Of a DNA stretch of 32,000 nucleotides, positions 3,004 through 32,000 are shown one piece after another (positions within the stretch are counted from its first letter, which is position 1; each line of letters starts with the position of its first letter). The DNA comes from Candidatus Electrothrix sp. GW3-4 (lineage in GTDB: Bacteria; Desulfobacterota; Desulfobulbia; Desulfobulbales; Desulfobulbaceae), in the NCBI RefSeq assembly GCF_037902255.1, contig NZ_CP147990.1, positions 3,690,001 through 3,722,000 of the forward strand, read 5' to 3'. The notes beneath the pieces were generated by a model. It ran no database searches and was not told the DNA's origin. It saw nothing but the letters and a program-made list of their open reading frames with translations. The translations under genes were made by a program, and so were the position numbers.

Positions 3004-5730
3004 ATGGAATTGCTCGCAGTCTGGGGAATAGGCAAGGCGGTTTTGCCCTTTTTTCGCCCCATCCTGGAAACCATCGCCAAGGACGTGGCCAAGGATGCCG
3101 CCAAGAGCTACGTGGGCAAGTGCTTTAAGAGCGTCTTTTCGGTCATCCACAAGGATGCCCTGAGCAAGGCCACCGGTCTGGCCCTGAAAGAGCTCCTCGT
3201 CCTCATCGAAGACGAGTTCATCCGGGCGGATATCGAAGAGGAGCGGCTGCCCACCTGGACCGAGGACCTGCGCCGTTTTGTCGAGCAGGACCGGGTCTGT
3301 CAGGCCATTGCCGATCTCTTTCTCCGGCCTGAGGCCATCCCGGAGCCGGGCAGCTTTGCCCTTGCCTGGCAGGAGCTTGAAGGTGCCCAACCCCTGCCGG
3401 ACGGATTCAACTGGAAGTACATCAGCAGGCGTTTCTCGGCCAAGGTCAAGGAGATTCGTCATTCCTCTCCTGAACTCCGGGAGACCTTCGAGTCCCTGGC
3501 CAAGGCCCAGGACTCCGCAGCCCTGCAGGAGCTGGCCGGTCTGCCGCCCGGTTTCAATCTGGATACCTACCGCGAGGCCCTGTTCGAGCGCTACGGCAAG
3601 CTGGACTTTGCCAGCCTGGATGTCACCGGGCCCTACTATGATAATGTCCGTCTCTGGAAGGTCTTCGTGCCCCAGTCGGTCCGGGAATGCCATGAGTACG
3701 ACCCGCAGCTGCTGGAGGTCCCCAAGGAAGAGCTGCAACGCCAGGCCGAGGCGGGCGAGCTGGACCCGGAACAGCTGGCCGAGTCCGAGCGCTTGCATGA
3801 GGAGCGCAGGCGGGCCTATGTCAACCAGCCGCCGCGCCCGGTGCTCGAAGTCGCCAACGATACCGCAAGCCAGCGCCTGCAACGCCTGGTCATCCTCGGT
3901 GATCCCGGTTCGGGCAAGTCCTGCCTCCTGCAATACCTAGCCCTGGCATGGGCCAAGATCGACGATCCCAACCAGCGCTACACCGCCCCCCTCCCCCTGC
4001 TCATCGAGCTGCGGGCCTATAACCGCTGGCCATGTCCCAACGGCAAGGGCTTTCTCAAGTACCTGCACGAGTCCTCCACCTGGCATCGGCTCAATCAACA
4101 GACCCTCCATCATCTGCTCGGTCAGCCGGGCCGCGTTGTCCTCCTGTTGGACGGGCTGGACGAGGTCTTTGACCCGGTGGAGCGCGAGCAGGTGGTCAAC
4201 GATATCCACCGTTTCAGCAACGAGTACAAGCAGGTTCGCATTGTGGTGACCTCGCGGGTGGTGGGCTATAGGTCCAAGCGCCTGCGTGATGCTGAGTTCC
4301 GCCATTTCATGCTCCAGGACCTGGATAAGGAACAGATCAGCAGCTTTCTGGAGAAATGGCATACGGTCACCTTTGACAAGCTGGAGGAAGGCGCGACCAA
4401 GCGGGAGCGGCTGGCCAAGGCCATCGAGCGATCCAAGTCCATCGGCCAGCTGGCAGGCAATCCCCTGCTTCTGACTATGATGGCCATCCTCAACCGCAAC
4501 CAGAAGCTGCCTGACGATCGGGTGGACCTGTACCAGCAATGCTCCCGCCTCCTCCTCCATCAATGGGATACCGAACGGGCCCTGGGGGATTTCCCCGGCC
4601 TGAGCGAGGAGATCGGCCTGCGGGAAAAGACCACCATCCTCCGCACCGTGGCCTATGCCATGCAGACGCACCAGGCCGAGAACACGCGGGCCAACTATAT
4701 TGATGGCCAGGCCCTGGAGAAGCTGATTGAGGAGTACCTCCATACCGAGTTACGTTTTGAGCAGGCACGGGCCGTGGCCCGGGCCTTGGTTGAGCAGTTA
4801 CGAAGGCGGAACTTTATCCTCTGCTACCTGGGTGGAGACAGCTACGCCTTTGTCCATCGGACCTTTCTGGAGTATTTCTGTGCGGCCGAGATCGTCCATC
4901 AGTTCAATGTGGCCAAGACGCTCAGCGAGCAGGATCTAATTGATTTGTTCGATAAGCACTGTGGGGACGATGACTGGCGCGAGGTGCTGCGCCTGATCTG
5001 TGGGCAGATTGATGAGAAGTTTGCCGGACGAATTATTGCCCATCTGACGGAACGGGTAGATATGGAAGCGTGGGATGGAGAAATGCCGTTGCCGGAGTTG
5101 GTGCTGGCGGTTTGGTGCTTGAGCGAAGTTAGAAATTTAAATAAAATTCAGGAGAAGATAGGAGGAGACCTGCTGTTAAAAGTTGTTGGCTGTTTTTTAA
5201 GAGGAACAAGAGGAAATCATCGTCTTGCTTGGCAACTGCTTGCAGCGGCTAAGGATATTGGCACTGTATGGCCAGGAAAATTCCGATTTGATTTTATATT
5301 GCAATACCCTGTAGAGTGGTGGGAATTTCAGGTCACATGGCCTCAATTTTTAGCGGCTGTTTTCAAGCAACGCCGGTGGATAGAACAACTTGCCGGTGTG
5401 GAAAATAATTTTATTCGATCAGGTTCTTTTTTTACTTTAAATCAATACTGGCCTGATGAGAAAGCTTATCAGCTTTTTAAAGAGTTTTCTCGTTTCGATG
5501 GAGCAGCAGCTTCATTTTATGGAGGCAAGCATTCCAAGTTTGGTAAATTTATATTTGAACGTGTTTTATTGTATCATGATCCTCGCAATCCCATCCCCGT
5601 CGAGCACATCCAACAAGCCGCAGAAGAAGCCGGTATTCCCCCGTATAAAATCGACGAAACCGTGCGCTCTCTTTCAGAGCACATGGGCTGGGACATCACC
5701 AAAGGCAGCGAGGCCGGGAAGCTGGCATAA
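3004..5730 (+). CDS. NACHT-domain STAND NTPase (bacterial NACHT, candidate anti-phage / conflict-system protein)
   Basis: 908-aa ORF. Walker A LVILGDPGSGKSCLL at about 3898-3921. Walker B VVLLLDGLDEV at about 4135-4167. GNPLLLTMM motif typical of the NACHT/winged-helix region. The ~290-aa helical N-terminal region and the C-terminal region are unassigned. Confidence 0.85.
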   Translation: MELLAVWGIGKAVLPFFRPILETIAKDVAKDAAKSYVGKCFKSVFSVIHKDALSKATGLALKELLVLIEDEFIRADIEEERLPTWTEDLRRFVEQDRVCQAIADLFLRPEAIPEPGSFALAWQELEGAQPLPDGFNWKYISRRFSAKVKEIRHSSPELRETFESLAKAQDSAALQELAGLPPGFNLDTYREALFERYGKLDFASLDVTGPYYDNVRLWKVFVPQSVRECHEYDPQLLEVPKEELQRQAEAGELDPEQLAESERLHEERRRAYVNQPPRPVLEVANDTASQRLQRLVILGDPGSGKSCLLQYLALAWAKIDDPNQRYTAPLPLLIELRAYNRWPCPNGKGFLKYLHESSTWHRLNQQTLHHLLGQPGRVVLLLDGLDEVFDPVEREQVVNDIHRFSNEYKQVRIVVTSRVVGYRSKRLRDAEFRHFMLQDLDKEQISSFLEKWHTVTFDKLEEGATKRERLAKAIERSKSIGQLAGNPLLLTMMAILNRNQKLPDDRVDLYQQCSRLLLHQWDTERALGDFPGLSEEIGLREKTTILRTVAYAMQTHQAENTRANYIDGQALEKLIEEYLHTELRFEQARAVARALVEQLRRRNFILCYLGGDSYAFVHRTFLEYFCAAEIVHQFNVAKTLSEQDLIDLFDKHCGDDDWREVLRLICGQIDEKFAGRIIAHLTERVDMEAWDGEMPLPELVLAVWCLSEVRNLNKIQEKIGGDLLLKVVGCFLRGTRGNHRLAWQLLAAAKDIGTVWPGKFRFDFILQYPVEWWEFQVTWPQFLAAVFKQRRWIEQLAGVENNFIRSGSFFTLNQYWPDEKAYQLFKEFSRFDGAAASFYGGKHSKFGKFIFERVLLYHDPRNPIPVEHIQQAAEEAGIPPYKIDETVRSLSEHMGWDITKGSEAGKLA
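5658..5730 (+). repeat. Direct repeat copy 1: the last 24 codons of the NACHT gene
   Basis: AACCGTGCGCTCTCTTTCAGAGCACATGGGCTGGGACATCACCAAAGGCAGCGAGGCCG... recurs at 6311-6385. Confidence 0.9.
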
Positions 5731-5818: not shown

Positions 5819-6286
5819 ATGGAATGGGCTGAAGTCATAGGCAACCCCCTTTTGCAGAATCTTCCCTTCAAGATCGAGCTGAACCGCTTCGGCAAAATCC
5901 TCATGAGCCTGGCCTCCAATCAGCACGGACGCATCCAGGGCCGGATGGCTGCGAATCTTGTCAATAAGCTGCCCAACGGTGAGGTCATCACGGAATGCTC
6001 TATCCAAACCTCGGAGGGAGTCAAGGTGGCCGATGTGGTTTGGGCCTCGGATGAGTTCATCCAGACCTTTGCCTATGAAACCCCGTATCCCAAGGCCCCG
6101 GAAATCTGCATTGAGATCGTTTCCACGTCAAACTCCAAGGCGGAAATTACCGGCAAGGTGGAACTCTATCTGGCAAAGGGTGCGCAGGAAGTCTGGGTAG
6201 TCTATGAGGACGGCAGAATTACGACCTTCAGCCATATCGGGGAAATCAAAAAAAGCTCCTTGGTCCCTGATGCGCAGAAGCTCTAG
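5819..6286 (+). CDS. Uma2 family (DUF820) restriction-endonuclease-like protein
   Basis: 155 aa. The segment PEICIEIVSTSNS...KVELYLAKGAQEVWVV matches the PD-(D/E)xK-type core of Uma2/DUF820 proteins. TGGAG lies upstream of the ATG. Confidence 0.75.
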   Translation: MEWAEVIGNPLLQNLPFKIELNRFGKILMSLASNQHGRIQGRMAANLVNKLPNGEVITECSIQTSEGVKVADVVWASDEFIQTFAYETPYPKAPEICIEIVSTSNSKAEITGKVELYLAKGAQEVWVVYEDGRITTFSHIGEIKKSSLVPDAQKL

Positions 6287-10561: not shown

Positions 10562-11155
10562 ATGATCATGTCGCTATTGAGCAATCTTTTTGGTTGGAAG
10601 AAACCCTTGCCGGAGGCAAAGCAGAGGGAACTGGCAGCCTCGCTTCTTCAAGAGGCACAAGCACTTGCAGCGAATAAGCCGAAAAAAGCGCTTTCCCTGC
10701 TTCGTCGCAAAAGTAAACCCGCTTATGATGTACTGCGCATCGGAGGGGCGATGCATGGCGAATTCCGCAGTCTGGTCGTGAGGATACGGTCAAGACGGGA
10801 GCAATGCCCATTCCTTCCTTCCACTGCGGTGGAGGTAATCTGTTGGGATACCTGGCAGGATCCCATGTTCCACGACATCGCTGATCGCACCCGCAAAACA
10901 GAGGCCGAGGTCTTGTATATCCCCCCATCGCCCAAGCGAAACCCTAGAGACGCAATGGCCGAGCTTGAGGCCTTGCAGATGCTGTACGATCCAGAGGTGG
11001 GCGTGATGACCATTGGTGAAAAAGGGGTGTTCCTGCGCTGTTCGCTGATTTTGGCAGCGGTAGGTAACCTCCCGGATGATGCTGAAGAAATCATTCAGGA
11101 TATGTTGGATCAGGCCAAGGTTCAGGGACTGAAGGTCGGGTGGATTACGGTGTGA
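10562..11155 (+). CDS. Hypothetical protein (the start may be the ATG at 10568)
   Basis: 197-aa ORF with core-like GC content. AGGGGAG lies just upstream. No recognisable domain. Its 3' end is duplicated at 12763-12858. Confidence 0.55.
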   Translation: MIMSLLSNLFGWKKPLPEAKQRELAASLLQEAQALAANKPKKALSLLRRKSKPAYDVLRIGGAMHGEFRSLVVRIRSRREQCPFLPSTAVEVICWDTWQDPMFHDIADRTRKTEAEVLYIPPSPKRNPRDAMAELEALQMLYDPEVGVMTIGEKGVFLRCSLILAAVGNLPDDAEEIIQDMLDQAKVQGLKVGWITV

Positions 11156-11312: not shown

Positions 11313-11321
11313 GTGAAAAAC

Positions 11322-12758
11322 ATGAAGAAAGTCTCAGCAGAACAAGTGATTAAACGTCTCAAGATTGAAAACCCTTGGTGGGAAACACGAAAAATACCAA
11401 CGGCCTATCTTGCGTTTAAGCCTCGATCTTACCTTGAGCTTTTCTACCCTTTAGTTCAGACCAAAAAAATTCGACGAGCAACGGTCTTGATGGGGCCGAG
11501 ACGAGTTGGCAAGACCGTAATACTCCACCATACTATACAGAACCTCATTGACAGTGGTTATGACCCCAACAAAATAGGATATTTCTCTGTAGATCACCCC
11601 ATTTACAATGGATTAGGCCTAGAGGAATTACTTGAACTTTTTTCTGCGGCGACTGAAGCTAACTATCACGAGGATGAGTGCTACATCTTTTTTGATGAAA
11701 TACAATATCTCAAGAATTGGGAAAATCATCTTAAACTTCTTGTAGACCGTCAGCCAAACTTAAAATGTACCGTGTCTGGGTCTGCTGCGGCAGCATTGAA
11801 ATTAAAAAGCTCAGAATCTGGAGCAGGAAGATTTACAGATTTTCTTCTGCCGCCATTAACATTTCACGAATATCTGGAGCTTTTAGATAAAAATAATCTG
11901 GTTATACCACCAAGCGAAGCGAATGGTTTTTTCAAACCACGCAATATAGAAAAATTAAACGAAAGTTTTATTCACTATCTTAACTATGGAGGATACCCGG
12001 AAGTTATTTTCTCCGACATAATCCAATCAGACCCAGGTCGTTTTATCAAAAGTGATATTATCGACAAAGTTCTTCTGAGGGATTTGCCGGGTCTGTATGG
12101 TATTCAAGATATACAGGAACTCAACTACCTTTTTACAACACTAGCTTTTAACTCATCAAACGAAGTGTCCTTGGAAGAACTATCCAAAGGATCAGGTGTA
12201 GCTAAAAATACGATAAAAAAATACATTGAGTACTTAGAAGCGGCTTTTCTTATTAGAACAGTTCATAGAATAGACAGAACAGCTAAGCGCTTTAAGCGTG
12301 CCAATTTTTTTAAGGTTTATTTGACTAATCCGTCTATTCGAAGTGCCTTATTTTCTCCTGTTACTCATTCGGATGAAGCTATAGGGGCTCTCTCGGAAAC
12401 AGCTATATATTCTCAATGGTTTCATTCCGACACCTTACTCCATTATGCTCGATGGAAAAACGGAGAGGTTGACATCGTTCACTTGAACAAACAATTAAAA
12501 GTCTCGTGGGCTATCGAGGTTAAATGGACGGATAGATTTTTCACCAGACCTCATGAGCTGAAGAGTCTTATTCAATTTTGCCACTCAAATAATGTTACAG
12601 GGGCTGCTGTAACGACTATGACAAAATCAGAAAAAGTAACCGTTGAGAATGTTAATTTTGATTTCATCCCCACAAGTTTATATTGTTATACAGTCGGCTA
12701 TAACATCGTAAAAGGTAAACAAAATATAAGAGAGGGGCTAACCAGCGGAGCAACCTGA
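11322..12758 (+). CDS. AAA+ ATPase of the COG1373 / DUF4143 family (an alternative GTG start is at 11313)
   Basis: Walker A LMGPRRVGKTV. Walker B YIFFDEIQYLKNWE. C-terminal GEVDIVHL...WAIEVKW resembles a PD-(D/E)xK core. GC content is low relative to the neighbours. Confidence 0.8.
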   Translation: MKKVSAEQVIKRLKIENPWWETRKIPTAYLAFKPRSYLELFYPLVQTKKIRRATVLMGPRRVGKTVILHHTIQNLIDSGYDPNKIGYFSVDHPIYNGLGLEELLELFSAATEANYHEDECYIFFDEIQYLKNWENHLKLLVDRQPNLKCTVSGSAAAALKLKSSESGAGRFTDFLLPPLTFHEYLELLDKNNLVIPPSEANGFFKPRNIEKLNESFIHYLNYGGYPEVIFSDIIQSDPGRFIKSDIIDKVLLRDLPGLYGIQDIQELNYLFTTLAFNSSNEVSLEELSKGSGVAKNTIKKYIEYLEAAFLIRTVHRIDRTAKRFKRANFFKVYLTNPSIRSALFSPVTHSDEAIGALSETAIYSQWFHSDTLLHYARWKNGEVDIVHLNKQLKVSWAIEVKWTDRFFTRPHELKSLIQFCHSNNVTGAAVTTMTKSEKVTVENVNFDFIPTSLYCYTVGYNIVKGKQNIREGLTSGAT

Positions 12759-13025: not shown

Positions 13026-13832
13026 ATGGTATCCCCACGATTAGTTGCAAAAATAGAAACAGAAGAGCCGACTCTTAGTTTGGCTGTTTTAATTGATGCT
13101 GATAATGCTCAGGCCGCTGTGATCGAAGGTCTACTTGCAGAAATTGCTAGATTTGGCGAAGCCACCGTAAAACGCATCTACGGTGACTTCACAGCACCAA
13201 CAAGTGCATCATGGAAAAAAGTTCTACAAAAATATGCCATTAAACCAATCCAGCAATTTGCCTACACAACCGGAAAAAACGCAACCGACAGCACAATGAT
13301 TATTGATGCAATGGATTTACTTTACACCCGTAAATTTAATGGCTTCTGCCTCATTACAAGCGATAGTGATTTCACCGGCCTAGCTATGAGAATACGCGAA
13401 GAAGGTCTAACTGTTCTTGGTTTTGGTGAAAAGAAAACTCCAATGGCTTTCCGTAACGCCTGCCATAAATTTATATTTACAGAAGTGCTTCGACCCACTC
13501 AAGAAGATGAACAAAACGACTCCCCCCAGCTAAGTGAAAAGCATAAAAAATCCTCAGAACCTCAAGCCTCTTCTTCGCCACCTCCTTCAAACAACATATT
13601 TCCTGAAAAATTCATTCTCACAGCACTTGATCAATCAACAGATGATACTGGTTGGGCACAACTCGGAACATTTGGTAGCTACCTAACTAAATTGCAACCC
13701 GATTTTGACTCAAGACTTTATGGTTACAAAAAACTCTCTGATTTGGTTAAGGCCAAAAATAATCTCTTTCAAACTGAAGAAAGAGAAGCACCAAGTGGAA
13801 ATCAAAAAATTCTTTATATCAGGGCAAAATAA
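13026..13832 (+). CDS. NYN (LabA-like) domain protein with a C-terminal OST-HTH/LOTUS domain
   Basis: LAVLIDADNA...KRIYGDF...GKNATDSTMIIDAMDLLY...CLITSDSDFTGLAMRIREEG (NYN acidic residues). C-terminal GWAQLGTFGSYLTKLQPDFDSRLYGYKKLSDLV (OST-HTH). Low GC content. Confidence 0.8.
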   Translation: MVSPRLVAKIETEEPTLSLAVLIDADNAQAAVIEGLLAEIARFGEATVKRIYGDFTAPTSASWKKVLQKYAIKPIQQFAYTTGKNATDSTMIIDAMDLLYTRKFNGFCLITSDSDFTGLAMRIREEGLTVLGFGEKKTPMAFRNACHKFIFTEVLRPTQEDEQNDSPQLSEKHKKSSEPQASSSPPPSNNIFPEKFILTALDQSTDDTGWAQLGTFGSYLTKLQPDFDSRLYGYKKLSDLVKAKNNLFQTEEREAPSGNQKILYIRAK

Positions 13833-19556: not shown

Positions 19557-21421
19557 AAGGGTGTTGAAAAGTACCCCTGCATAGAGCAATTTCAGTTGTC
19601 CGAGATGCTCAATAAGCATTTTTTTCGTTTGTTAGTGTCACTGCAATCTGATGTCGAGCACTTTCCAGGCGGAATTCAACCTTTTTCAAAAAGCCACTAT
19701 GGGCAAGGCTCTATTTTTTGGACAAGCCGACTGTCAGAAACAGCAAAAATGAACAAACGGGTATTTTTGTAGCTGTAATAATTTAGATTGTTGTTTTGGT
19801 CCTTCTGCTATGCTGCCATTTTGAAGAGTGGCAGTTGCGGTGACTTTTTAGCAGGTATTTTTTTGCGGGTTCCTATCATTTTCAACAATAACAAGGAAAT
19901 ACTGCTGAGCGTACATCGAGCTGTGATCGCGGACTGACCGCGAACCCGAACGGTTTCAAGGCCGGTTTGATGTTTTAACAGGTTGAAAGGTCGTTCAGAA
20001 TTTTTGCGAATATCGTGTGCCTCCTGTATCTGCTCGACATGGTAAGGTATTCGCTGGAAAAAGCCTCTGTCTAACGGTATGCATCGACATTGCGGACAGC
20101 TTCCTTTGAGAAGACATTCACCTGTATTTGCAGCACATTTATACTCGTGATGATTCCCTTCGACGCCTGCATACTCCATAGGAACAGAACATTCATCATG
20201 GCAGAAAACAGTGCCTTTGACAGCATCAACATTATCCGGTGTAGATACTGTAGAACAGGGTGGAGTTGTCACGTATACACCTGTTTTATTGTACAATGAT
20301 CCGTCATTGTCATGATAGGCGGTATCGGCGGTGATGAGTTTCATCTTAACCCCCATAGCCTGCGCCACATCGACCAAAAGCGAAAGAAAGTGACTATCAT
20401 GGTGATTTGCCGGTGCAAGCAAAGATATGATCGGAAAACTATGATCAGTTTCAGCGTCAATTGCAGTTAACGTATGCAGACGATAGCCGACTACGTACAC
20501 AGATTTGTCACGCTTGTTGCGTCGTTTTCCACAGTCGCTGTCGAGATCATTGTAAATGCGTATATTTTGACCATTGATATTCAATGAAGCCAGGGGGATT
20601 TTACATTCATTGGCCAGTTCGGTAGAGTCCACTCCGTGCAGGATATGGTCACCAAGCATCCCGGACTGCAAAAAATGATGCAAAATATAAACCGTAATAT
20701 TAATCTGTTGGACAAATGTGAGGGAATTACGGAATTTGCTAAGCTGAGTATGGTCGATCATTGTTTTTTCACGCAATGACAATCCGATAAAGGCGCGATT
20801 CTGTTTGCGGTCAAGGCCGAGGTATTCTTCATCACAGAATTTTCGGTAGCTGATTTCTGGATACTTGATCGTCTTGAGCAGTTCGGCACGGAACATGTTG
20901 TGAGGGAAAAAGTCCCGCATAGCAGGACTATAGCCGTCATAAGCTAACAGGCGATTGATAATTTCGTTGTCAAGCAGCTGGTCGATAAACTGGAGCTCTT
21001 CATCTTTGATATATTTGGCGAAACGCCTTTCGCCAAAAAGCTTTATGATACTGTTATTTTTTGATTCATTGACAATATCGGCCATCTGATCAAGGCTGAT
21101 AATCCCCTTTGTCGGAACCTGTTGCTCCACGCCGAGCAGCTGATCTGGGGTGGCTGAAATATCCTGCTTGAAATCATACTCGCCCGCGACCTGCGCGAGG
21201 ACTTTTCGAGAGATTTCCTTTTTGGTCTTACGGTTCAGCCGGTTCCAATTAGGATAGTTTTCCTTAAGCTCTTTTTGTACGAGACGTTTGATATTTTTAT
21301 TATGCATAATGCCTGAAATGGGTAACGAATTAACATTATTAACTTTTCGTCATTATACAGGGTTTTTTCGACTTAAGCAACTGTTTTTGTGTAATATTGA
21401 AGTGTTCTTTTCAACACCCTT
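19557..21421 (-). mobile_element. Insertion sequence, 1865 bp, with 18-bp terminal inverted repeats and a 5-bp target-site duplication
   Basis: Left end AAGGGTGTTGAAAAGTAC (19557-19574). Right end GTTCTTTTCAACACCCTT (21404-21421), which is the reverse complement AAGGGTGTTGAAAAGAAC; 17/18 match. ATATA flanks both ends (19552-19556 and 21422-21426). The element encloses a single transposase ORF. Confidence 0.85.
19808..21307 (-). CDS. DDE transposase (IS4/IS5/IS1182-type superfamily; exact IS family not assigned)
   Basis: 499 aa. Candidate catalytic regions: ILHGVDSTELA, KLITADTAYHDNDG, and a C-terminal RKNSERPFNLLKHQTGLETVRVRG block typical of DDE_Tnp_1-type enzymes. Confidence 0.8.
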   Translation of the reverse strand: MHNKNIKRLVQKELKENYPNWNRLNRKTKKEISRKVLAQVAGEYDFKQDISATPDQLLGVEQQVPTKGIISLDQMADIVNESKNNSIIKLFGERRFAKYIKDEELQFIDQLLDNEIINRLLAYDGYSPAMRDFFPHNMFRAELLKTIKYPEISYRKFCDEEYLGLDRKQNRAFIGLSLREKTMIDHTQLSKFRNSLTFVQQINITVYILHHFLQSGMLGDHILHGVDSTELANECKIPLASLNINGQNIRIYNDLDSDCGKRRNKRDKSVYVVGYRLHTLTAIDAETDHSFPIISLLAPANHHDSHFLSLLVDVAQAMGVKMKLITADTAYHDNDGSLYNKTGVYVTTPPCSTVSTPDNVDAVKGTVFCHDECSVPMEYAGVEGNHHEYKCAANTGECLLKGSCPQCRCIPLDRGFFQRIPYHVEQIQEAHDIRKNSERPFNLLKHQTGLETVRVRGQSAITARCTLSSISLLLLKMIGTRKKIPAKKSPQLPLFKMAA

Positions 21422-24816: not shown

Positions 24817-26043
24817 ATGTCGTTTTTAGGCAAGAAGATCTGCTACCTGGATTGTTTTTCCGGGGTCAGTGGTAATATGCTCCTGGGAGGCCTGCTCAAT
24901 GCAGGCTTAGCGCTGGAAGCCCTCCGGGAGGCGCTCGGTCTTCTCAGGCTTCCGGGTTGGGAGCTGAGCAGCACCCCTGTTATGCAATCCGGTTTACAGG
25001 CCACCCTAGCCCAGGTTCAGACAGAGGAGAACAGAGCCCATCGCCATTTCTCCGATATCCGTGCCCTCCTGGAACAATCGGAACTGGACCAAGCCGTTAT
25101 CGACCAATCCCTTGCCGTGTTCACCCGGCTGGCCGAGGCAGAAGCCCATGTCCACGGTACCACTCCTGAAAAAATCCATTTCCACGAAGTGGGGGCCCTG
25201 GATGCGATCATCGATATCGTCGGGACGGTTGCTGGCCTGCATCTCCTCGGCATAGAAGAGATTATCTGCTCTCCTCTGCCTATGCCTACTGGCGGCTGGC
25301 TCCATTGCCAACACGGAGCGCTGCCCCTGCCTGCCCCGGCGGTCTGCGAACTCCTCAAAGGGGTCCCTGTCTTCGGGGAGAGCCTGCAACAGGAGCTGGT
25401 CACCCCCACCGGTGCGGCCCTGGCTGCGGAATTGAGCAGCACCTTCGGCACGCTGCCTCCTATGACCCTGAAACTAAGCGGTTACGGAGCTGGGACCATG
25501 CAACGCCAGGACGGTCGACCCAACCTACTCCGTTTGCTCATCGGACAAAGCCACTCTGCTGCCGAAGCGCAACAGGTGGAGGTCATTGAGACCCATCTGG
25601 ATGACTGGAACCCGGAGGTCTGGCCCCATGTGGCAGCCAAGCTGATGCGGGAGGGCGCACTGGACATCAGCCTTGTACCCATCCAGATGAAAAAAGGGCG
25701 CCCCGGTTTCCTCCTCCGCCTCCTTGCTGATCCGGCCCATGCTGCGCATCTCAGGAACTCCGTCCTCAACGAAACCTCTGCCATTGGTCTTCGTTTTCAT
25801 ACTGTCCAGCGCATAACCCTGCCCAGAACCAACATTGAGCTCACCACCCCCTGGGGGACCGTGCGGGCCAAAAAGGTAACCACCACTGCGGGGGTCAGGA
25901 TTACCCCGGAGTACGAGGACTGTACGCGTCTGGCAGAAGCACACAATATCCCCTTACTAAAAATCTATGCTGCGGTTGCAGAATTGAGCGGCACGGTTTC
26001 CGTTCATTCCCACGAACCGCCAAGACACGACATTCCCAAATAA
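24817..26043 (+). CDS. larC: Nickel-pincer cofactor biosynthesis protein LarC (DUF111 family)
   Basis: YLDCFSGVSGNMLLGGLLNAG...HFHEVGALDAIIDIVG...ETSAIGLR are LarC/DUF111 signatures. Confidence 0.88.
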   Translation: MSFLGKKICYLDCFSGVSGNMLLGGLLNAGLALEALREALGLLRLPGWELSSTPVMQSGLQATLAQVQTEENRAHRHFSDIRALLEQSELDQAVIDQSLAVFTRLAEAEAHVHGTTPEKIHFHEVGALDAIIDIVGTVAGLHLLGIEEIICSPLPMPTGGWLHCQHGALPLPAPAVCELLKGVPVFGESLQQELVTPTGAALAAELSSTFGTLPPMTLKLSGYGAGTMQRQDGRPNLLRLLIGQSHSAAEAQQVEVIETHLDDWNPEVWPHVAAKLMREGALDISLVPIQMKKGRPGFLLRLLADPAHAAHLRNSVLNETSAIGLRFHTVQRITLPRTNIELTTPWGTVRAKKVTTTAGVRITPEYEDCTRLAEAHNIPLLKIYAAVAELSGTVSVHSHEPPRHDIPK

Positions 26044-26045
26044 TC

Positions 26046-26504
26046 ATGGATAAACTCTTCATGTTCATCGCCACTGGGGCCTATAGCGGCTACCTGCCCA
26101 AAGCTCCCGGCACTTGGGGTTCCCTGGTCGGAGTGCTGCTCTGGACACTTGGCCTGCATCGACTTGCTCCTGCTGCCTATGCCGGTATGCTGGCGGGAAT
26201 CCTGCTGATCGGCACGGCGGCAGCCGGGGCTGCGGAAAAGATCGTGGACCGAGGCGATCCTGGCCTGGTGGTCATTGACGAGATTCTCGGTCAGCTGATT
26301 GCCTTGTCCCTGGCACCTTCGCATCCCCTGGCCGCTGTTGCTGGCTTTGCCCTGTTTCGCTTCTTCGATATCCTCAAGCCCTTTCCGGTATCCTGGCTTG
26401 ACCAGCATATTCACGGCGGCCTGGGTATCATGCTCGACGATGTGATGGCGGGAATCTACGCCCTTCTGGTTCTGCAAGGGTTGATCTGGCTGGTGGGGAG
26501 CTAA
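26046..26504 (+). CDS. pgpA: Phosphatidylglycerophosphatase A
   Basis: GYLPKAPGTWGSLVG...VVIDEILGQ...FRFFDILKPFP...GLGIMLDDVMAGIYA. Confidence 0.9.
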   Translation: MDKLFMFIATGAYSGYLPKAPGTWGSLVGVLLWTLGLHRLAPAAYAGMLAGILLIGTAAAGAAEKIVDRGDPGLVVIDEILGQLIALSLAPSHPLAAVAGFALFRFFDILKPFPVSWLDQHIHGGLGIMLDDVMAGIYALLVLQGLIWLVGS

Positions 26505-26722
26505 CACCTAACACATAATGAACAATGCTGTTACACGAGCAGAAAGAGACAAGTGAAGCTCTCTGCTTGAAGTACAAAGACTGCGGACGGTGAGCTGCTT
26601 CAGCCTCTCGCAGGAGCCGGGCCAACTTCACGGCCTGATTGCCCTTCACTGAGCCAAATGCCGGAGGATGATTTGGGCTAACTAATCAGACCGCAAACTG
26701 ACACCCTCTAAAAGGCAGCAAC

Positions 26723-27490
26723 TTATGTCGAAAGAAATCTGTCTTCTTGAGGGGATAGTATCTGCTGTAGTAGCATCGGAAGCATAAGAATACTGCAATA
26801 TACAGTCAAATTGCTGAATCTAAAATCCGAGGCAGGAGCTATGACAAGATAAGGCAGCCAGTATATCACCCCTAACAAGAGGACAAATAAGTATCTTCTG
26901 TAGTTCTCTCCGAGCCGTTCTTTGTAGTAATGTATTAAAAAGAGCTGGAGAAAGATCAAAACGAAATAGACCCAAACCAAATACAGAGGCGTTTTCGTCA
27001 GGAACCAGTTGGCAAGCCTTGCTGCCGCATTTATTGCCTTTGGATGGTGGAACTCAAGGCCTTTTGTCAAATAATGATCAAAGACAGTGACCTCATATGG
27101 ACATATAATCGGTTTTTTTATTCCAAGCAGGTAAGACAGCATCCTGCCCCGAATCTTTAAGTAGGCTTCAGGATATTGCAGGATTAACCGGATAAAGTCT
27201 TTCTTAAATGTTTTGTCTGGAAATGATTCTTTCCAGATGCTCCATTTAATATATTCCAACGAGAGCATAGTTGGGGCGTAAGGAATATACATTTTCTTGA
27301 TCTGTTCAACCGTAAGCGGCTCAACAAGCTCCTTGGCTAGCGATTCAGGAATAAGGTTTTGTTCCAGCTCTGCCGACATCCCCCATAGGTCAAGCATGAG
27401 AGAAGAATTCTCAAGATGGTATATTTTGTTTTCTTCTTTTACAAGAGTAGCTGTTATCCAATTGTTTAACTGAATGCTTCCATACAACAT
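26723..27490 (-). CDS. Membrane protein, probably the C-terminal part of a frameshifted polytopic (GT-C / polymerase-like) protein
   Basis: 255 aa, low GC content, C-terminal TM helices. It comes into frame with the upstream ORF if the A8 tract (T8 on the + strand, 27519-27526) gains one base. Confidence 0.55.
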   Translation of the reverse strand: MLYGSIQLNNWITATLVKEENKIYHLENSSLMLDLWGMSAELEQNLIPESLAKELVEPLTVEQIKKMYIPYAPTMLSLEYIKWSIWKESFPDKTFKKDFIRLILQYPEAYLKIRGRMLSYLLGIKKPIICPYEVTVFDHYLTKGLEFHHPKAINAAARLANWFLTKTPLYLVWVYFVLIFLQLFLIHYYKERLGENYRRYLFVLLLGVIYWLPYLVIAPASDFRFSNLTVYCSILMLPMLLQQILSPQEDRFLST

Positions 27491-27501
27491 TATTGCGGTT
27501 G

Positions 27502-28092
27502 CTATGATGATTCCTGTATTTTTTTTATTGCGCTGCCTTGGATAAGCGTTGAGAAAAGATAGACACTATACGGAACCACACAAACAATGGCATTGTGCCG
27601 AACAGACATCCCGTAAAAAAAAAAGAGGAATGATGCCATCAGAAGCCACTTGTTTCTTGTGGTTTCAAAGGTGAAAAGCAGGGCGATAGACATGGAGAGA
27701 GAAGCAAGCATTGAAACATCCTTCCATATAACGCCGTTCATGAAAAATATCGGCGGAAACAGTCCAAGAAAGAGGATAAAGACTGCTCTGTGAATGGTCT
27801 TTGAAAAGAAAAATCTCCCCAGAATATAGAGGGAGGCGTAGTAAACGGCATTATGGAATATCAGCATTCCTTGCTGGCCATGGGTGATCTTATTGAGGAT
27901 GCTCCAAAGATACACCATGGAGGGCGGATACCAATTGCTGATATATTCTGGATGCAGTGCCTCATGCCACTGATTGACAGAGTCCACTGACATAGCACCA
28001 GGATAGAAGATGTAGATCACCGTCAAGACGAGGACTATGCTCAGGAAGGCATCAGCAGGGACAACTTTTTTTAATGATGGGTATATTTTCAT
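27502..28092 (-). CDS. Membrane protein, probably the N-terminal part of the same frameshifted polytopic protein
   Basis: ~196 aa from the ATG at 28092, with 5-6 TM helices. The loop motif YPGAMSVDSVNQW follows TM1. It ends 15 nt after an A8 run. A C8 tract lies 7 nt upstream of the start. Confidence 0.55.
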   Translation of the reverse strand: MKIYPSLKKVVPADAFLSIVLVLTVIYIFYPGAMSVDSVNQWHEALHPEYISNWYPPSMVYLWSILNKITHGQQGMLIFHNAVYYASLYILGRFFFSKTIHRAVFILFLGLFPPIFFMNGVIWKDVSMLASLSMSIALLFTFETTRNKWLLMASFLFFFYGMSVRHNAIVCVVPYSVYLFSTLIQGSAIKKIQESS

Positions 28093-28398
28093 TGCCAAAG
28101 GGGGGGGACGAAAAAAGAATGGTGATGCTCATGAGATTAAAGTTGTCCTCGAATAGCTCCTGGGCTCCCAAAAACAGCCACTTAAAAAACGCAAAATGGG
28201 GCTACAAGCTTATATGGGGTTCACTTTAATCCCCCTTCATATATAGATATAAAGGATAATTAAGTGTATAACTCGAGTTACTTACCCCTTGGCGCCACCC
28301 CTGTCAAGAGAAAATTTCCAAGCCAGAAGATCATCCTGTCCAGCTGGAGCCCCCCTAGAAACAACCAAACACACGTTCCATTTCCCGCATATTTCCCA

Positions 28399-28427
28399 TT
28401 GACATCTCTCCCGCCCCTTTCTATCAT
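28399..28427 (+). promoter_or_regulatory. Candidate sigma70-type promoter for livGF
   Basis: TTGACA at 28399-28404, a 17-nt spacer, then TATCAT at 28422-28427, about 60 nt upstream of the livG ATG. Confidence 0.4.
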
Positions 28428-28489
28428 ACTCGACAGACTCTTATTTCAAGAGCGATGCCATACGGTTGAACCCTAAACAAAGCCCCCTG

Positions 28490-29257
28490 ATGCTCCTCGA
28501 AGTAAAAAATATGACCCATTATTTTGGAGGACTGCGGGCCGTGCATGGCTTTAACCTCCAGATTGATCCAGGCCAGATCCACGGCCTGATCGGCCCCAAC
28601 GGGGCGGGAAAGACCACTGTCTTCAACCTGATCACCGGGGTGTACACGCCCACCGAGGGAACCCTGACCCTTGCAGGAAAAAAAATCCGGGGTAAGGAAC
28701 CCCATCACATCGCCTCAATGGGCATCGGCAGGACCTTCCAGAACCTGCTCCTCTGGCGGCATATGAACGTGCTGGATCATATCCGACTGGCCCATTATTC
28801 CCAGCTCAGCTACGGCCTGTTCGGGGCCTTTTTCGGCACCCCGGCCTGCCGACAGCAGGAAAAAAAGGTCAAGGAGCATTGCTACCGACTCATGGAGACC
28901 TTTGATATCAGCCAGTTTGCCGACCAGATCGTGGGCAGCCTGCCCTATGGGGCCCAACGCCGGGTGGAAATGGCCCGGGCCATGGCCACCAACCCAAAGA
29001 TCCTCTTCCTGGACGAACCCACAGCAGGCATGACCCCAGATGAGCTGGTCAGAATGATTGCAATTATCCGTCAGGTTCACCGGGAATTCGGGGTGGCTAT
29101 CTTCCTTATTGAGCATCGGATGAAATTTGTCATGGAGCTCTGCGACAGCATCCAGGTCCTGGTCTTTGGCGAAGTCATCTCCCAGGGACCACCGGAGTCC
29201 ATTCAGAACGATCCCAAGGTCATTGAAGCCTATCTCGGTACAGAGGATATTCATTAA
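28490..29257 (+). CDS. livG: Branched-chain amino acid ABC transporter ATP-binding protein LivG
   Basis: LLEVKNMTHYFGGLRAVHGFNL...GLIGPNGAGKTTVFNLITG...LPYGAQRRVEMARA...LFLDEPTAGM. I preferred the ATG at 28490 over the TTG at 28466. Confidence 0.88.
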   Translation: MLLEVKNMTHYFGGLRAVHGFNLQIDPGQIHGLIGPNGAGKTTVFNLITGVYTPTEGTLTLAGKKIRGKEPHHIASMGIGRTFQNLLLWRHMNVLDHIRLAHYSQLSYGLFGAFFGTPACRQQEKKVKEHCYRLMETFDISQFADQIVGSLPYGAQRRVEMARAMATNPKILFLDEPTAGMTPDELVRMIAIIRQVHREFGVAIFLIEHRMKFVMELCDSIQVLVFGEVISQGPPESIQNDPKVIEAYLGTEDIH

Positions 29258-29970
29258 TGCAGCTTGTCGTTGAAAATCTCACTGTTTCCTATGGCAATAT
29301 CCGGGCTCTACACGGGATCAGCTTTTCCGTGGAGCAGGGCGAGATCGTGACCATCATCGGGGCCAACGGGGCGGGCAAAAGTACCACCCTCCGGGCTATC
29401 TCCCGAATGATTCCAGCAGAAGCGGGATCAAAGGTAGAATTCATGGGCCAGGATATCCTCAAATATCCAACCGACAAGGTGGTGTCCCGGCTTGGTATCT
29501 CCCATGTGCCGGAAGGCAGGATGATCTTCGGTAATCTTACCGTGACTGAGAATCTCACCCTGGCCGCCTTTGCCCGTAAGGATAAGGAGGCGGTGAACAA
29601 GGACCGTAAATGGGTCTTTGATCTCTTTCCCCGTCTGGAAGAACGAAAAGACCAGTTGGCTGGGACCCTGAGCGGTGGAGAGCAACAGATGCTGGCCGTA
29701 GGCCGGGCCTATATCAGTGGCCGGAAGATTATGCTCCTGGATGAACCTTCTATGGGGCTTGCGCCCCTGCTGATGCTGGATATGTTCGAGTCCCTGAAGG
29801 AGATCAACCGGACCGGAACCACTATCCTGCTGGTGGAGCAGAACGCCCGGCTGGCGCTGAAGTTTGCTCAGCGCGGTTATGTGCTGGAGAACGGGAAACT
29901 GGTGTTAGAAGGTAAGGCCGAGGGGCTGCTGGATGATCCGGCGGTGAAAAAGGCGTATTTGGGGGCGTGA
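29257..29970 (+). CDS. livF: Branched-chain amino acid ABC transporter ATP-binding protein LivF
   Basis: LTVSYGNIRALHGISF...IIGANGAGKSTTLRAIS...LSGGEQQMLAVGRA...LLDEPSMGLAP. The start overlaps the livG stop (TAATG). Confidence 0.9.
   Translation: MQLVVENLTVSYGNIRALHGISFSVEQGEIVTIIGANGAGKSTTLRAISRMIPAEAGSKVEFMGQDILKYPTDKVVSRLGISHVPEGRMIFGNLTVTENLTLAAFARKDKEAVNKDRKWVFDLFPRLEERKDQLAGTLSGGEQQMLAVGRAYISGRKIMLLDEPSMGLAPLLMLDMFESLKEINRTGTTILLVEQNARLALKFAQRGYVLENGKLVLEGKAEGLLDDPAVKKAYLGA
29821..29970 (+). repeat. Direct repeat copy 1: the last 50 codons of livF
   Basis: The 150 nt recur at 31575-31724 with 14 differences (about 91% identity). Confidence 0.95.
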
Positions 29971-30105
29971 ATGATCAGACTCTTGAAGCGCGTACAGGTG
30001 AGTCAAAAAAAATAACGTATCAAATTTGTTATATATTGAACATTGATCAGTTAGCTTTGTCACTCGACAGGAACAGCAAAAAAATAGGAAGAAGAGGAAC
30101 GCCGC

Positions 30106-30690
30106 ATGAAAACTTTCAAACCAATTATTGTCTTTATACTTATGCTTCTGGTGGTGGATTCCGCAACCGCACAGGAGGTGCAGAGTGTAGTGCGAAGTCC
30201 TCTGGGCGGTATAGCTGTCGGCCCTTCAGGGCTAGCAACTGCTGTAATACATACCCGACCTTACTGCTGCCCATCAACCGCACTGGAAGTATATACTGAT
30301 GAAATAGTAGGAGAGGAGAATCTTCAATGGGTGCTGTTTGGATTCAGCGTCCCGATAGAAAAAAGCATGAGGGAAATATCCGGGGTTGAGGTATGTTATG
30401 AGATTAAGTCTGATCTGCCAGGACGGACATATATCTCCCAGACAAGATTAACTGATATGAGTACCCCTGATGCAGCATATGTGCAGGTTGATGACAGCAC
30501 AGATCGTACAGAACTCGGCCCGCAATGCTATATAAGCAACGGCCATTTTAAGCCTGACGGTTCCGTTGCTTTGCATCTGAAAGTCGTCTTTGGAGATCCC
30601 GATGATACAATTACGATAGGCAGCACGAGGCTGCTTATAACTCATTCTTCGCCGCCGCTTGTAGCTCCTATGATGCTGCTTCTGGACTGA
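30106..30690 (+). CDS. Secreted protein of unknown family, paralog A (194 aa)
   Basis: Signal peptide MKTFKPIIVFILMLLVVDSATA|QE. Conserved PYCCPSTALEV, EVCY, ISQTRLTDMSTPDAA, GPQCY. GAGGAA ribosome-binding site. Low GC content. Confidence 0.75.
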   Translation: MKTFKPIIVFILMLLVVDSATAQEVQSVVRSPLGGIAVGPSGLATAVIHTRPYCCPSTALEVYTDEIVGEENLQWVLFGFSVPIEKSMREISGVEVCYEIKSDLPGRTYISQTRLTDMSTPDAAYVQVDDSTDRTELGPQCYISNGHFKPDGSVALHLKVVFGDPDDTITIGSTRLLITHSSPPLVAPMMLLLD

Positions 30691-30749
30691 CTTGGAAAAA
30701 AGAGAAGTAGAATCCGGTTACTCTATTCATAGAAAAGAATCATTCCACA

Positions 30750-30772
30750 GGAAGCGAACTGCTTCCCTTTGT
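30750..30772 (+). terminator. Weak stem-loop between the two paralogs
   Basis: GGAAGC-gaact-GCTTCC followed by CTTTGT. The stem is short and the U-tract poor. Confidence 0.3.
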
Positions 30773-30838
30773 CAAAAAAACAACTGGTATTATCAGGTAA
30801 CGATAAGAGCTGAAAAACAAGAATAAGAGGAGAACAGC

Positions 30839-31378
30839 ATGAAGATTTTATTTAAATCAATCGTCGTCATCGCGCTTATGATGTCAGCGGCAGGGTCTGC
30901 AACAGCGGAGGAAGTGCAAAGTATAGTGCAAAGTCCTCTGGGCGGTATAGCTGTCGGCCCTTCGGGACCGGCAAGTGCTGTGATATATACCCAACCTTAT
31001 TGCTGCCCTTCAACGGCACTTGAAGTACGTGCCAATAGCGTAGTGGGTGAGAATGATTTTCAATGGGTGAATTTCGGCCTTAGTCTTCCTATAGAAAACA
31101 ACATGAATGCAATATCCGAGGTTGAAGTTTGTTATCAAATTATATCTGCCCAGTCTGGAAGCACATATATCTCCCAGACAAGATTAACTGATATGAGTAC
31201 CCCTGATGCAGCAACAGTGAAACTTGATGACGGAACTGATCGCACTGATCTCGGCCCCCAATGTTACGTGACAAATGGTAACATTACCCCTGAGGGGACT
31301 ATTACGCTAGCACTGAAAGTCGTCTTTGGCGATACTGAAGATGCAATTATTATAGGTAGTACCAGGCTGCTGTTCTGA
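30839..31378 (+). CDS. Secreted protein of unknown family, paralog B (179 aa)
   Basis: Signal peptide MKILFKSIVVIALMMSAAGSATA|EE. Roughly two-thirds amino-acid identity to paralog A by eye, with the same four conserved Cys. AGGAG ribosome-binding site. Confidence 0.75.
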   Translation: MKILFKSIVVIALMMSAAGSATAEEVQSIVQSPLGGIAVGPSGPASAVIYTQPYCCPSTALEVRANSVVGENDFQWVNFGLSLPIENNMNAISEVEVCYQIISAQSGSTYISQTRLTDMSTPDAATVKLDDGTDRTDLGPQCYVTNGNITPEGTITLALKVVFGDTEDAIIIGSTRLLF

Positions 31379-31574
31379 TTTAAACATAAGCGGAGCCCTC
31401 CTCACAAATTCTGTCAACATTAACCAGAGAATCTTTAAACTGACACCGGATGAGTGATCGCCGAATCCTCCTCTGTCTCGTGCGAGACTTAATGCTTGCA
31501 GCAATGGGGTACCGAAAAAAATAACGGGTGGATTATTCAAAATCCAGATAGAAATTAACCAGGCATCTTGCTCC

Positions 31575-31724
31575 ACTATCCTGCTGGTGGAGCAGAACGC
31601 CCGGCTGGCGCTGAAATTTGCTCAGCGTGGTTATGTGCTGGAGAATGGAAAACTGGTCCTGGAGGGTAAAGCCGAGGACCTACTGGATGATCCGGCGGTG
31701 AAAAAGGCGTATTTGGGGGCCTAA
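31575..31724 (+). pseudogene. Orphan livF 3' fragment (direct repeat copy 2)
   Basis: It encodes TILLVEQNARLALKFAQRGYVLENGKLVLEGKAEDLLDDPAVKKAYLGA*, one amino-acid difference (G->D) from livF residues 188-237. There is no upstream livF sequence, start codon or RBS. Confidence 0.9.
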
Positions 31725-31809
31725 AGGTTTCCGTAGCGGTGGTTGATGACCAAACCGAAAAAAGAACGGATGTATGCGCTACAGCATTGCTCCATGCCAA
31801 TCTCAAGCA

Positions 31810-31845
31810 CGACGAACTACCCGTTTCGTCGCCTTTCTCTTTTAT
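31810..31845 (+). terminator. Intrinsic terminator downstream of the orphan livF fragment
   Basis: CGACGAA-ctacccgt-TTCGTCG followed by CCTTTCTCTTTTA, about 85 nt after the orphan stop codon. Confidence 0.55.
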
Positions 31846-32000
31846 CTCCCCTTACCTCCACCTAACTCCATCCTCTGGACAAACAAACACGGCGTACAAA
31901 AATAACACTTCCCTCTTGTCGAGGTAAAAAAAATTGTACTTCGATAGTATTTATGCTATCCTAAAGAAAAAAGGTTAGTCTTTACTCATGCTATGTGATC

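Follow-up and report, generated by a model that had tools for sequence, protein, structure and literature searches.

In a 32,000-nucleotide (nt) stretch of the genome of Candidatus Electrothrix sp. GW3-4 (contig NZ_CP147990.1, positions 3,690,001 to 3,722,000; the whole stretch is called the window, and positions are counted from its first letter), an intact livF-like gene is followed by a 1.6-kb cassette with two genes for predicted secreted proteins, cargoA and cargoB, and then by a second copy of the livF end, here called the orphan. It was found that the two copies of the livF end differ almost only synonymously, that the orphan is built of alternating identical and divergent blocks, and that the cassette junctions have counterparts in other Electrothrix lineages. 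We consider it on balance probable that this is an old chromosomal accessory cassette flanked by direct repeats of the livF end, and that homologous recombination has replaced its livF fragment again and again, at least once with sequence from another functional livF allele. The features of the region, with protein lengths in amino acids (aa), are:

28466–29257, plus strand: livG-like ATP-binding cassette (ABC) ATPase of the HAAT family (Pfam ABC_tran and BCA_ABC_TP_C)
29257–29970, plus strand: intact livF-like ABC ATPase, 237 aa, TGA stop (Pfam ABC_tran)
29819–29971, plus strand: left direct repeat, the last ~50 livF codons and the stop (repeat search, alignment)
29971–30105, plus strand: left junction spacer J1, immediately 3' of the livF stop (homology to positions 32–163 of contig L105, 99/136 identical)
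30106–30690, plus strand: cargoA, open reading frame (ORF) for a 194-aa secreted protein that has a signal peptide, an invariant CC motif and a C-terminal tail of hydrophobic residues
30691–30838, plus strand: spacer between cargoA and cargoB, of which ~75 nt ahead of cargoB are conserved (local alignments to the sequence that precedes the cargo genes of L083 and L084)
30839–31378, plus strand: cargoB, secreted 179-aa beta-sandwich protein (homologues, AlphaFold model)
31379–31528, no strand assigned: right spacer, absent from L084, L103 and L104 (alignment)
31529–31572, plus strand: decayed 5' part of the orphan, livF codons ~173–187 (in-frame translation, local alignment, MAFFT)
31573–31725, plus strand: right direct repeat, the well-preserved orphan livF 3' fragment with a TAA stop (alignment, repeat search, codon comparison)
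31810–31831, plus strand: modest terminator-like hairpin with a 7-bp stem, free energy (dG) –8.5 kcal/mol, z score –3.3, tail CCUUUCUCUUUUAUC and an interrupted U tract

Substitutions between the two copies of the livF end

A sequence-only reading of this DNA had aligned 29821–29970 with 31575–31724 without gaps and counted 14 differences in 150 nt, and these numbers were exactly reproduced. By repeat search, the direct repeat was 153 nt long (29819–29971 and 31573–31725) with 91% identity. Twelve codons differ between the copies: ten are changed synonymously (K, R, N, G, V, L from TTA to CTG, E, K, L and A), one is changed from G to D (GGG to GAC), and the last is the stop codon, which is TGA in the gene and TAA in the orphan. 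With the Nei–Gojobori method, 11.5 differences were assigned to 39.0 synonymous sites and 1.5 to 108.0 non-synonymous sites. The synonymous divergence (dS) was 0.375 and the non-synonymous divergence (dN) 0.014, and dN/dS, which had been proposed as a check on the earlier reading, was ~0.04.

It was calculated that the probability of at least 11 synonymous changes among the 12 was 4 × 10–6 if both copies drifted neutrally, and 5 × 10–4 if the orphan alone was neutral after a local duplication while the gene remained under selection. A GC-to-AT mutation bias cannot rescue neutrality, because 36 of the 87 G/C sites of the repeat lie at third positions, and the binomial probability that at least 10 of 12 changes fall there is ~3.5 × 10–3. 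When the 14 differences were polarised with E. scaldis, seven sites matched the intact copy, six matched the orphan and one matched neither. All seven changes in the orphan lineage were synonymous third-position changes, for which the neutral chance is 0.265^7, or ~9 × 10–5. These results support the earlier claim that the divergence of the repeat arose under purifying selection, and that the two copies carry different alleles of a functional gene and are not a gene and its decayed local duplicate. In its present state the downstream copy is a non-functional remnant, and the upstream copy completes the working gene. The nearest livF of each copy was also sought, as had been suggested, and the comparison did not tell which copy is native: the two are equidistant from six orthologues (133 and 132 of 150 identical), as they are nearly in the polarisation with E. 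scaldis (7 and 6 sites).

A local tandem duplication of the livF end with decay in situ only, or an artefact of assembly or strain mixing, was weighed against these data. A duplication usually leaves direct repeats such as these, which lie 1.75 kb apart, and the genome is short-read-polished with residual homopolymer errors at 27518 and 28349. Pure tandem duplication followed by decay was nevertheless excluded by the substitution statistics (P = 5 × 10–4, and 9 × 10–5 for the orphan lineage alone). As to an artefact, the genome of Ca. Electrothrix antwerpensis GW3-4 is closed; it is a Flye assembly of Nanopore reads filtered to at least 4 kb, made from a single-filament enrichment and polished with Pilon (PMC11247825). 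Reads of this length can bridge the distance of 1.75 kb from one repeat to the other. A short-read contig of independent origin (L081, Logan SRR28154589) equals the window over 3.85 kb except at two homopolymers, and stops at window position 29848, the last 31-mer before the shared sequence that starts at 29819. This is where the contig is expected to end, because the de Bruijn graph should branch there if both copies are present. A chimera of strains or contigs, which the earlier reading had raised against itself, is unlikely, because the long-read genome of this clonal culture is closed and L081 ends exactly at the repeat edge. The same layout was also found in unrelated metagenomes, and we regard duplication with mere decay, or an artefact, as barely credible.

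Compared with L081 (5332–6702), the window has T8 instead of T9 at 27518 and C6 instead of C11 at 28349. The homopolymer at 27518 splits a 456-aa membrane protein with a weak PMT_2 glycosyltransferase match into ORFs of 198 and 255 aa (27502–28098 and 26723–27490). These homopolymer differences are probably residual Nanopore errors; phase variation is possible.

Mosaic structure of the orphan

The differences were not spread evenly over the orphan. By alignment column, 0/41 differences were found in columns 1–41, 12/67 in columns 42–108, 0/38 in columns 109–146, and 2/4 in the last codon and stop. In window coordinates, 31573–31615 is identical to the gene (43/43), 31616–31682 is divergent (67 nt), 31683–31720 is identical again (38 nt), and 31721–31724 holds two differences. 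This alternation of identical and highly divergent blocks exceeded chance (permutation p = 0.028). In the central 67-nt patch, the proportion of synonymous differences (pS) was 0.62, dS was 1.30 and dN was 0.03, compared with a dS of 0–0.11 in the flanking blocks. The dS of the patch is at or above that of livF between Electrothrix species (0.80–1.10).

The extent of the orphan given earlier (31575–31724) holds for the well-preserved repeat, whereas livF-derived sequence reaches back to ~31529. The stretch 31529–31572 reads in frame as ..LFKIQIEINQASCS.. where LivF has ..MFESLKEINRTGT.., its best local alignment with livF matched 22/33 nt (shuffle p = 0.039), and MAFFT also placed it on livF. 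Overall, the orphan comprises ~50–65 codons of the livF end. At 31573, the decayed sequence changes abruptly into the first identical block. Judged from these alignments, the orphan appears to be a recombination mosaic with an older decayed 5' edge, and not one uniform allele.

Content of the cassette

The insert had been described as low in GC and as carrying two genes, which was confirmed: its GC content is 0.443 (29971–31572) compared with 0.555 for livG–livF, and it holds two ORFs only. No Pfam or NCBIfam match was obtained for cargoA or cargoB. The two proteins are paralogues with 67% aa identity, and the family alignment showed signal peptides and an invariant PxCCPS motif in both. CargoB is 100% identical to WGN25_16490 of Ca. 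Electrothrix sp. GW3-4 (4.64-Mb contig), and none of its homologues (n = 89) has a Pfam domain. The AlphaFold model of cargoB (predicted local distance difference test score, pLDDT, of 87) is a beta-sandwich, for which Foldseek found weak similarity to CBM4/CBM6 and Eph ligand-binding jelly rolls (template modelling score of 0.45–0.55). On the basis of the model, we read the cargo as a predicted secreted binding protein with an unassigned ligand. Exact-protein look-ups of cargoA, cargoB and LivF returned no record. The cargo family (~180 aa, signal peptide, invariant CC, no Pfam match) is also present in Micromonospora and Saccharothrix.

In the left spacer, an ATG abuts the livF stop (TGAATG; window 29971–30015, L105 32–103). 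The first seven codons from this ATG encode the same peptide, MIRLLKR, in the window and in L105 despite 4 nt differences, and the frames diverge beyond; this similarity probably reflects conservation at the nucleotide level rather than a small ORF. No repeat copies of the spacers were found in the window or in any locus. The 12-mer AAAAAAATAACG occurs at 30006–30017 in the left spacer and again at 31515–31526, 14 nt before the decayed start of the orphan; it is A-rich, and its repetition is at chance level (E ~0.2–0.3). An integron-like cassette was considered and rejected, as there are no attC-like inverted repeats at the cassette boundaries.

The motif CCTCCTCAC..TCTGTCAAC, with a gap of N2–5, occurs once in the window at 31397–31418, 19 nt past the cargoB stop, and only once elsewhere in 108 loci, in L001 at 10716–10736, 2 nt past the livF stop. 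This 22-nt L001 motif was the only thing that stood out when the right spacer and the post-orphan sequence were compared with the native livF flanks of other species, and its uncorrected p of 0.019, from one of ~27 tests, did not survive correction for multiple testing. The motif may be left over from a native livF flank, or may be a regulatory or terminator element that the two loci have in common; we treat it as unexplained and not as evidence.

The livF locus in relatives without the cassette

A scan with LivF over one genome per species returned 80 loci, and none of them contained a second livF fragment or a cargo homologue. The order def-fmt-larC-pgpA-livG-livF is conserved in L001–L005 and E. 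scaldis (L107; CP138355), and pgpA-livG-livF was syntenic in all Electrothrix loci examined. E. scaldis was the closest, with 88.8% nt identity over livGF. The 1.6-kb cassette was missing at the same locus in these six other Electrothrix genomes, and is missing in most relatives, so that it is an insert relative to them, as the earlier reading had supposed. A complete second livF in a sister genome, which that reading had named as a sign of tandem duplication with deletion, was not seen among the 80 loci; no same-species genome was available for comparison, the nearest LivF being 95% identical.

Homology between the window and the cassette-free genomes ends at the livF stop codon, and the genes that follow differ in almost every Electrothrix species. 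A Uma2 nuclease gene follows in L004 and AR4; E. laxa (L002) keeps the flank without an intact Uma2 start, which looks mutated. A 1021-aa gene is found in YB6 (listed with L003, 10793–13858), and a three-gene CTD10-MC6-DUF2326 conflict system in E. scaldis (L107, 10725–13761). Given this variety of accessory genes, core and accessory DNA repeatedly meet at the livF stop, which is an insertion hot spot. After the orphan, 70 nt weakly match E. scaldis DNA that lies 6.4 kb beyond the livF of that species.

Recurrence of the layout in other lineages

Close homologues of the cargo genes (73–81% aa identity) were few, and were found in two named cable-bacteria genomes and a few metagenome contigs. 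A metagenome scan with the cargo alignment gave only distant homologues (at most 58% identity), none of which was livF-linked. The contigs with the livF-linked layout belong to the metagenome assemblies ERZ925367 (L103 and L105), ERZ23499198 (L104) and ERZ25073494 (L084). Contig L105 begins with the last 31 nt of livF (29/31 identical, TGA stop), continues with the J1 spacer (99/136 identical, 73%), and then contains a cargoA homologue with 71% aa identity. The left junction of livF stop, J1 and cargoA is common to the window and L105.

On the right side, the cargoB stop is directly followed by livF from codon 183 in L103 and L104 (TCTAA, then TCAACCGGG..), compared with ~150 nt of spacer and the decayed codons 173–182 at this place in the window. 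We infer that the window-type junction would turn into the L103-type junction by loss of the DNA lying between 'tctGAT', at the cargoB stop, and 'gaGATcaacc', in livF. L084 has the junction of L103 and L104 plus a further deletion of 27 nt. In L004 and AR4, the 88-nt spacer and the Uma2 gene that come after this orphan are found after the intact livF, and in L002 the spacer alone. This alignment is direct evidence that in L084, a parallel case, the orphan sits at the original gene end. The earlier proposal that the orphan marks the original end of the operon gains support from this parallel; in GW3-4, the window covers 276 nt after the orphan.

The remnants are in different states. That of L104 has 55 intact livF codons, and that of L103 carries an in-frame TAG, a 21-nt deletion and a frameshift, as expected under neutrality. 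Decay runs from 5' to 3' in the remnants of the window, L084 and L103, and the remnants of L104 and the window and the 3' two-thirds of that of L084 are gene-like. CargoB in L084, L103 and L104 differs from that of the window by ~18% nt, and the cassette by 18–24% nt from every known relative. Between lineages, pS of cargoB was 0.31–0.43 (~0.4), with a ratio of non-synonymous to synonymous proportions (pN/pS) of ~0.26. For the orphans of the window and L104, pS was 0.61 and pN 0.025.

The orphan-to-orphan pN/pS of 0.04–0.12 would also be expected if the orphan were a selected LivF C-terminal mini-protein of ~45 aa, translated from a GTG at 31587 or coupled to cargoB. In L084, an ATG indeed overlaps the cargoB stop (TAATG), and a 46-aa gene is called there. 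However, the L103 copy is broken by the stop, the deletion and the frameshift, and the start region is not conserved: in the window a 194-nt gap follows cargoB, and decay has affected the 5' codons of the window and L084 alike. An exact-protein look-up of the 45-aa orphan ORF (31587–31724) gave no match, and no gene is recorded for such a product. Such a mini-protein is considered extremely unlikely.

The cargo genes were also found in settings that lack the orphan. In AR4 (L083), the order is livF, Uma2, transposase fragment, cargoA, cargoB and ruvA; there is no orphan, the cargo genes lie 1.3 kb downstream of livF, and cargoB stands directly upstream of ruvA (L083 3959–4816). Distant cargo homologues (L097–L100) occupy a conserved neighbourhood of rho, cargo, a 321-aa protein and yebC-ruvC-ruvA-ruvB (e.g. 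L100 165–4901). The ruv-neighbour homologues and AR4 imply that the cargo genes are long-term chromosomal residents and not obviously foreign DNA.

Mobility features and the origin of the insert

No recombinase was found in the insert, the two ORFs of which have no Pfam or NCBIfam match and one of which is modelled as a beta-sandwich. Neither an integrase nor an excisionase was detected in the five cassette-bearing contexts, and no replication gene, tRNA (by scan), phage link or plasmid link was found at the cassette. The Rfam scan of 26000–32000 gave no match. CargoB had no relatives in IMG/VR or in the plasmid and phage collections searched, although absence from collections is not proof of absence. 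The only transposase in the window (19808–21307) lies 8.5 kb off.

It had been proposed that the geometry results from Campbell-type integration of a circular molecule. In its recent form, this would be a single crossover between the livF of GW3-4 and a non-replicating circle carrying cargoA, cargoB and the 3' segment of livF from another strain. The order of full gene, cargo and 3' fragment fits this well, as do the nearly all synonymous allelic divergence and the L084 orphan that abuts a native livF flank, and the conserved J1 and cargoB–livF' junctions resemble the internal junctions of a mobile element. Against it, the cassette is ~18–24% nt away from its homologues, so that the transfer was not recent or the donor is unsampled; replication, transfer and recombinase functions and plasmid, phage or IMG/VR relatives are missing; and in AR4 the cargo genes lie on the chromosome beside livF and ruvA, as their distant homologues lie beside ruvCAB. 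One reciprocal crossover alone does not produce identical, divergent and identical blocks in succession. What can be retained of the Campbell proposal is the topology with its repeats. A recent single integration into GW3-4 is not supported, as the junctions are common to other lineages, the edge of the remnant is older and decayed, and there is no evidence of a circle; we regard it as rather unlikely.

The geometry is also that of icd, e14 and icdC, in which the target gene runs into the inserted element and its C-terminal part recurs as a pseudogene at the other end (PMC13626634). The insert might accordingly be what is left of an island of the e14/icd or phage-21 type that was driven by an integrase and later lost this integrase and most of its DNA; in Electrothrix, the DNA past the livF stop is also a hot spot of insertion. 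This was judged very unlikely, with no integrase or excisionase in the five contexts, the nearest transposase 8.5 kb away and no phage relatives. In addition, no short identical core site was found; instead, identical blocks of 43 and 38 nt surround a diverged patch.

A recombination model

In the explanation that we favour, the locus is a small chromosomal accessory cassette that consists of J1, cargoA, cargoB and the right spacer, with a copy of the livF 3' end in the same orientation on either side. This architecture would have arisen once, in a duplicative event before E. antwerpensis split from several other Electrothrix lineages; a single origin is suggested because the left junction and the cargoB–livF' linkage are common to several lineages. 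Campbell-type integration and insertion with duplication of the gene end would give the same topology and would not be distinguishable. Since then, the remnants would have been overwritten repeatedly from functional livF genes, because a remnant of such age should resemble that of L103, yet those of the window, L104 and L084 are gene-like.

General homologous recombination of the RecA type may have acted among three partners, namely the remnant, the resident livF and the livF alleles of other lineages; host recombination is the most economical mechanism because no recombinase is present. Recombination tracts would overwrite the interior of the remnant, and this would leave stretches that equal the resident copy, together with a 67-nt patch of a foreign allele. 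The identical blocks point to exchange with the resident copy, in a direction that would be from gene to remnant. The central patch must have come from a different functional allele, imported into the remnant or the gene, because divergence after exchange in the remnant would be mostly non-synonymous. The 5' edge would decay, since tracts need homology on both sides and could not reach the end of the repeat. The repeats would further allow scarless loss of the cassette by repeat-to-repeat recombination and might serve as homology arms for its re-acquisition, which would explain its patchy distribution.

Several points weigh against this recombination model. Only in the genome of the window do the orphan and the intact gene lie together on a contig; L103 and L105 are two contigs from a single sample that were assumed to belong to the same genome. 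The divergence of the cassette (cargoB pS ~0.4) is near that of livF at the species level (pS ~0.5), and nothing points directly to a recent horizontal transfer of the cassette itself. The whole statistical argument rests on 150 nt with 14 differences, and the support for the decayed 5' extension is marginal (p = 0.039). The window closes 276 nt past the orphan and the collections hold no same-species sister genome; in GW3-4, the native livF flank may follow the orphan, and the imported patch may lie in either copy. Short-read polishing with Pilon across a repeat could artificially homogenise the identical blocks; it could not create differences that are nearly all synonymous.

A variant of the recombination model would make the cassette a recombinase-free mobile unit. 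In this variant, a captured livF 3' end would act as a portable homology arm, the unit would spread among Electrothrix lineages and be lost scarlessly by host recombination, and the arm would be re-sampled from functional livF in each cycle. If this were true, it would explain how the arm stays gene-like far longer than a pseudogene should. We hold it to be conceivable and unlikely.

The livG–livF pair and its surroundings

The livF-like protein matches Pfam ABC_tran at 1e-26 and BCA_ABC_TP_C weakly (0.003), and is 92–95% aa identical to other Electrothrix LivF proteins. Its top NCBIfam match is PRK11614 LivF (256.5 bits, below the equivalog cutoff of 441), and that of the livG-like protein is LivG (264.7 bits, below the cutoff of 362). 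No livH/livM permease or binding-protein gene was found in the window or adjoining the ATPase pair in the Electrothrix loci, so the operon setting of a LivF is absent. The name 'liv' is best taken as a family-level label, and the protein as LivF-like without a substrate assignment.

The earlier reading had placed a good intrinsic terminator after the orphan and none after the intact livF. The second part was confirmed, as no terminator-like site lies within 29971–30105. The hairpin after the orphan (31810–31831) is modest only, with its 7-bp stem, dG of –8.5 kcal/mol and interrupted U tract, and terminator-like sites are no commoner in the region (7) than in shuffles (6.8 expected).

On the other side of the pair, 26505–28465 is a low-GC (43%) segment between pgpA and livG with a minus-strand membrane-protein gene (26723–28098), whereas pgpA directly adjoins livG in E. 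scaldis, L001, L002 and L004. Together with the cassette, this segment means that livGF is flanked by accessory DNA on both sides in GW3-4. Other accessory or defence-like genes of the window encode an NNH2-NACHT NTPase (3004–5730), a Uma2 nuclease (5819–6286), an AAA_14/DUF4143 ATPase (11313–12758), an NYN-LOTUS protein (13026–13832) and the DDE transposase at 19808–21307. This Uma2 nuclease is 57% aa identical to the one downstream of livF in L084.

Comparison with known systems and significance

In the icd gene of E. coli K-12, DNA inserted by e14 or phage 21 is followed by a displaced copy of the last ~50 codons (icdC), the copies differ mostly synonymously, and recombination excises the insert and leaves a chimeric functional gene (PMC13626634). 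The livF locus is similar in that the gene frame is kept intact and a displaced gene-end copy of ~50 codons with mostly synonymous differences lies beyond the insert; direct repeats of the 3' end stand at both insert ends with the upstream gene intact. Unlike the livF cassette, e14 is a 15-kb prophage that encodes a site-specific integrase and is excised upon SOS induction. The livF insert measures 1.6 kb and contains two secreted-protein genes and no tyrosine or serine recombinase, its repeat is a mosaic rather than one replaced block, and its junctions are conserved across species.

A Campbell-type integrant likewise has a full gene, an insert, a truncated 3' copy and a native flank, here seen only in the parallel case L084, with direct repeats able to recombine. 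In contrast to such an integrant, no circular form, vector function or recent event was demonstrated, the cassette is ~18–24% diverged, and the remnant edge is older and decayed. The orphan also resembles pseudogenes in concerted evolution with their parents by gene conversion, as in silent cassettes and duplicated tuf genes: a non-functional copy has blocks identical to the expressed gene and escapes the decay expected for its age. It differs from these in that one patch fits neither neutral decay nor the resident allele and requires an allele of another lineage, and that no role as a donor of variation is evident. The locus belongs to a known kind, in which an insert is enclosed by a duplicated gene end, and is not a new type of genetic system; its peculiarities are that an integrase is missing and that recombination probably keeps the remnant gene-like.

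To our knowledge, cable bacteria have been neither obtained in pure culture nor genetically manipulated, and essentially nothing is known of their capacity for gene exchange. The livF repeat would provide a natural record of homologous recombination in these organisms, including the import of an allele from another lineage. It marks the livF 3' end as a recurrent boundary of accessory DNA in Electrothrix, and suggests that a short gene-end repeat can outlast speciation and yet stay gene-like. The repeat pair is a trap for short-read assembly and for analyses of livF based on single-nucleotide polymorphisms, and it predicts scarless loss, and possibly amplification, of the two secreted-protein genes.

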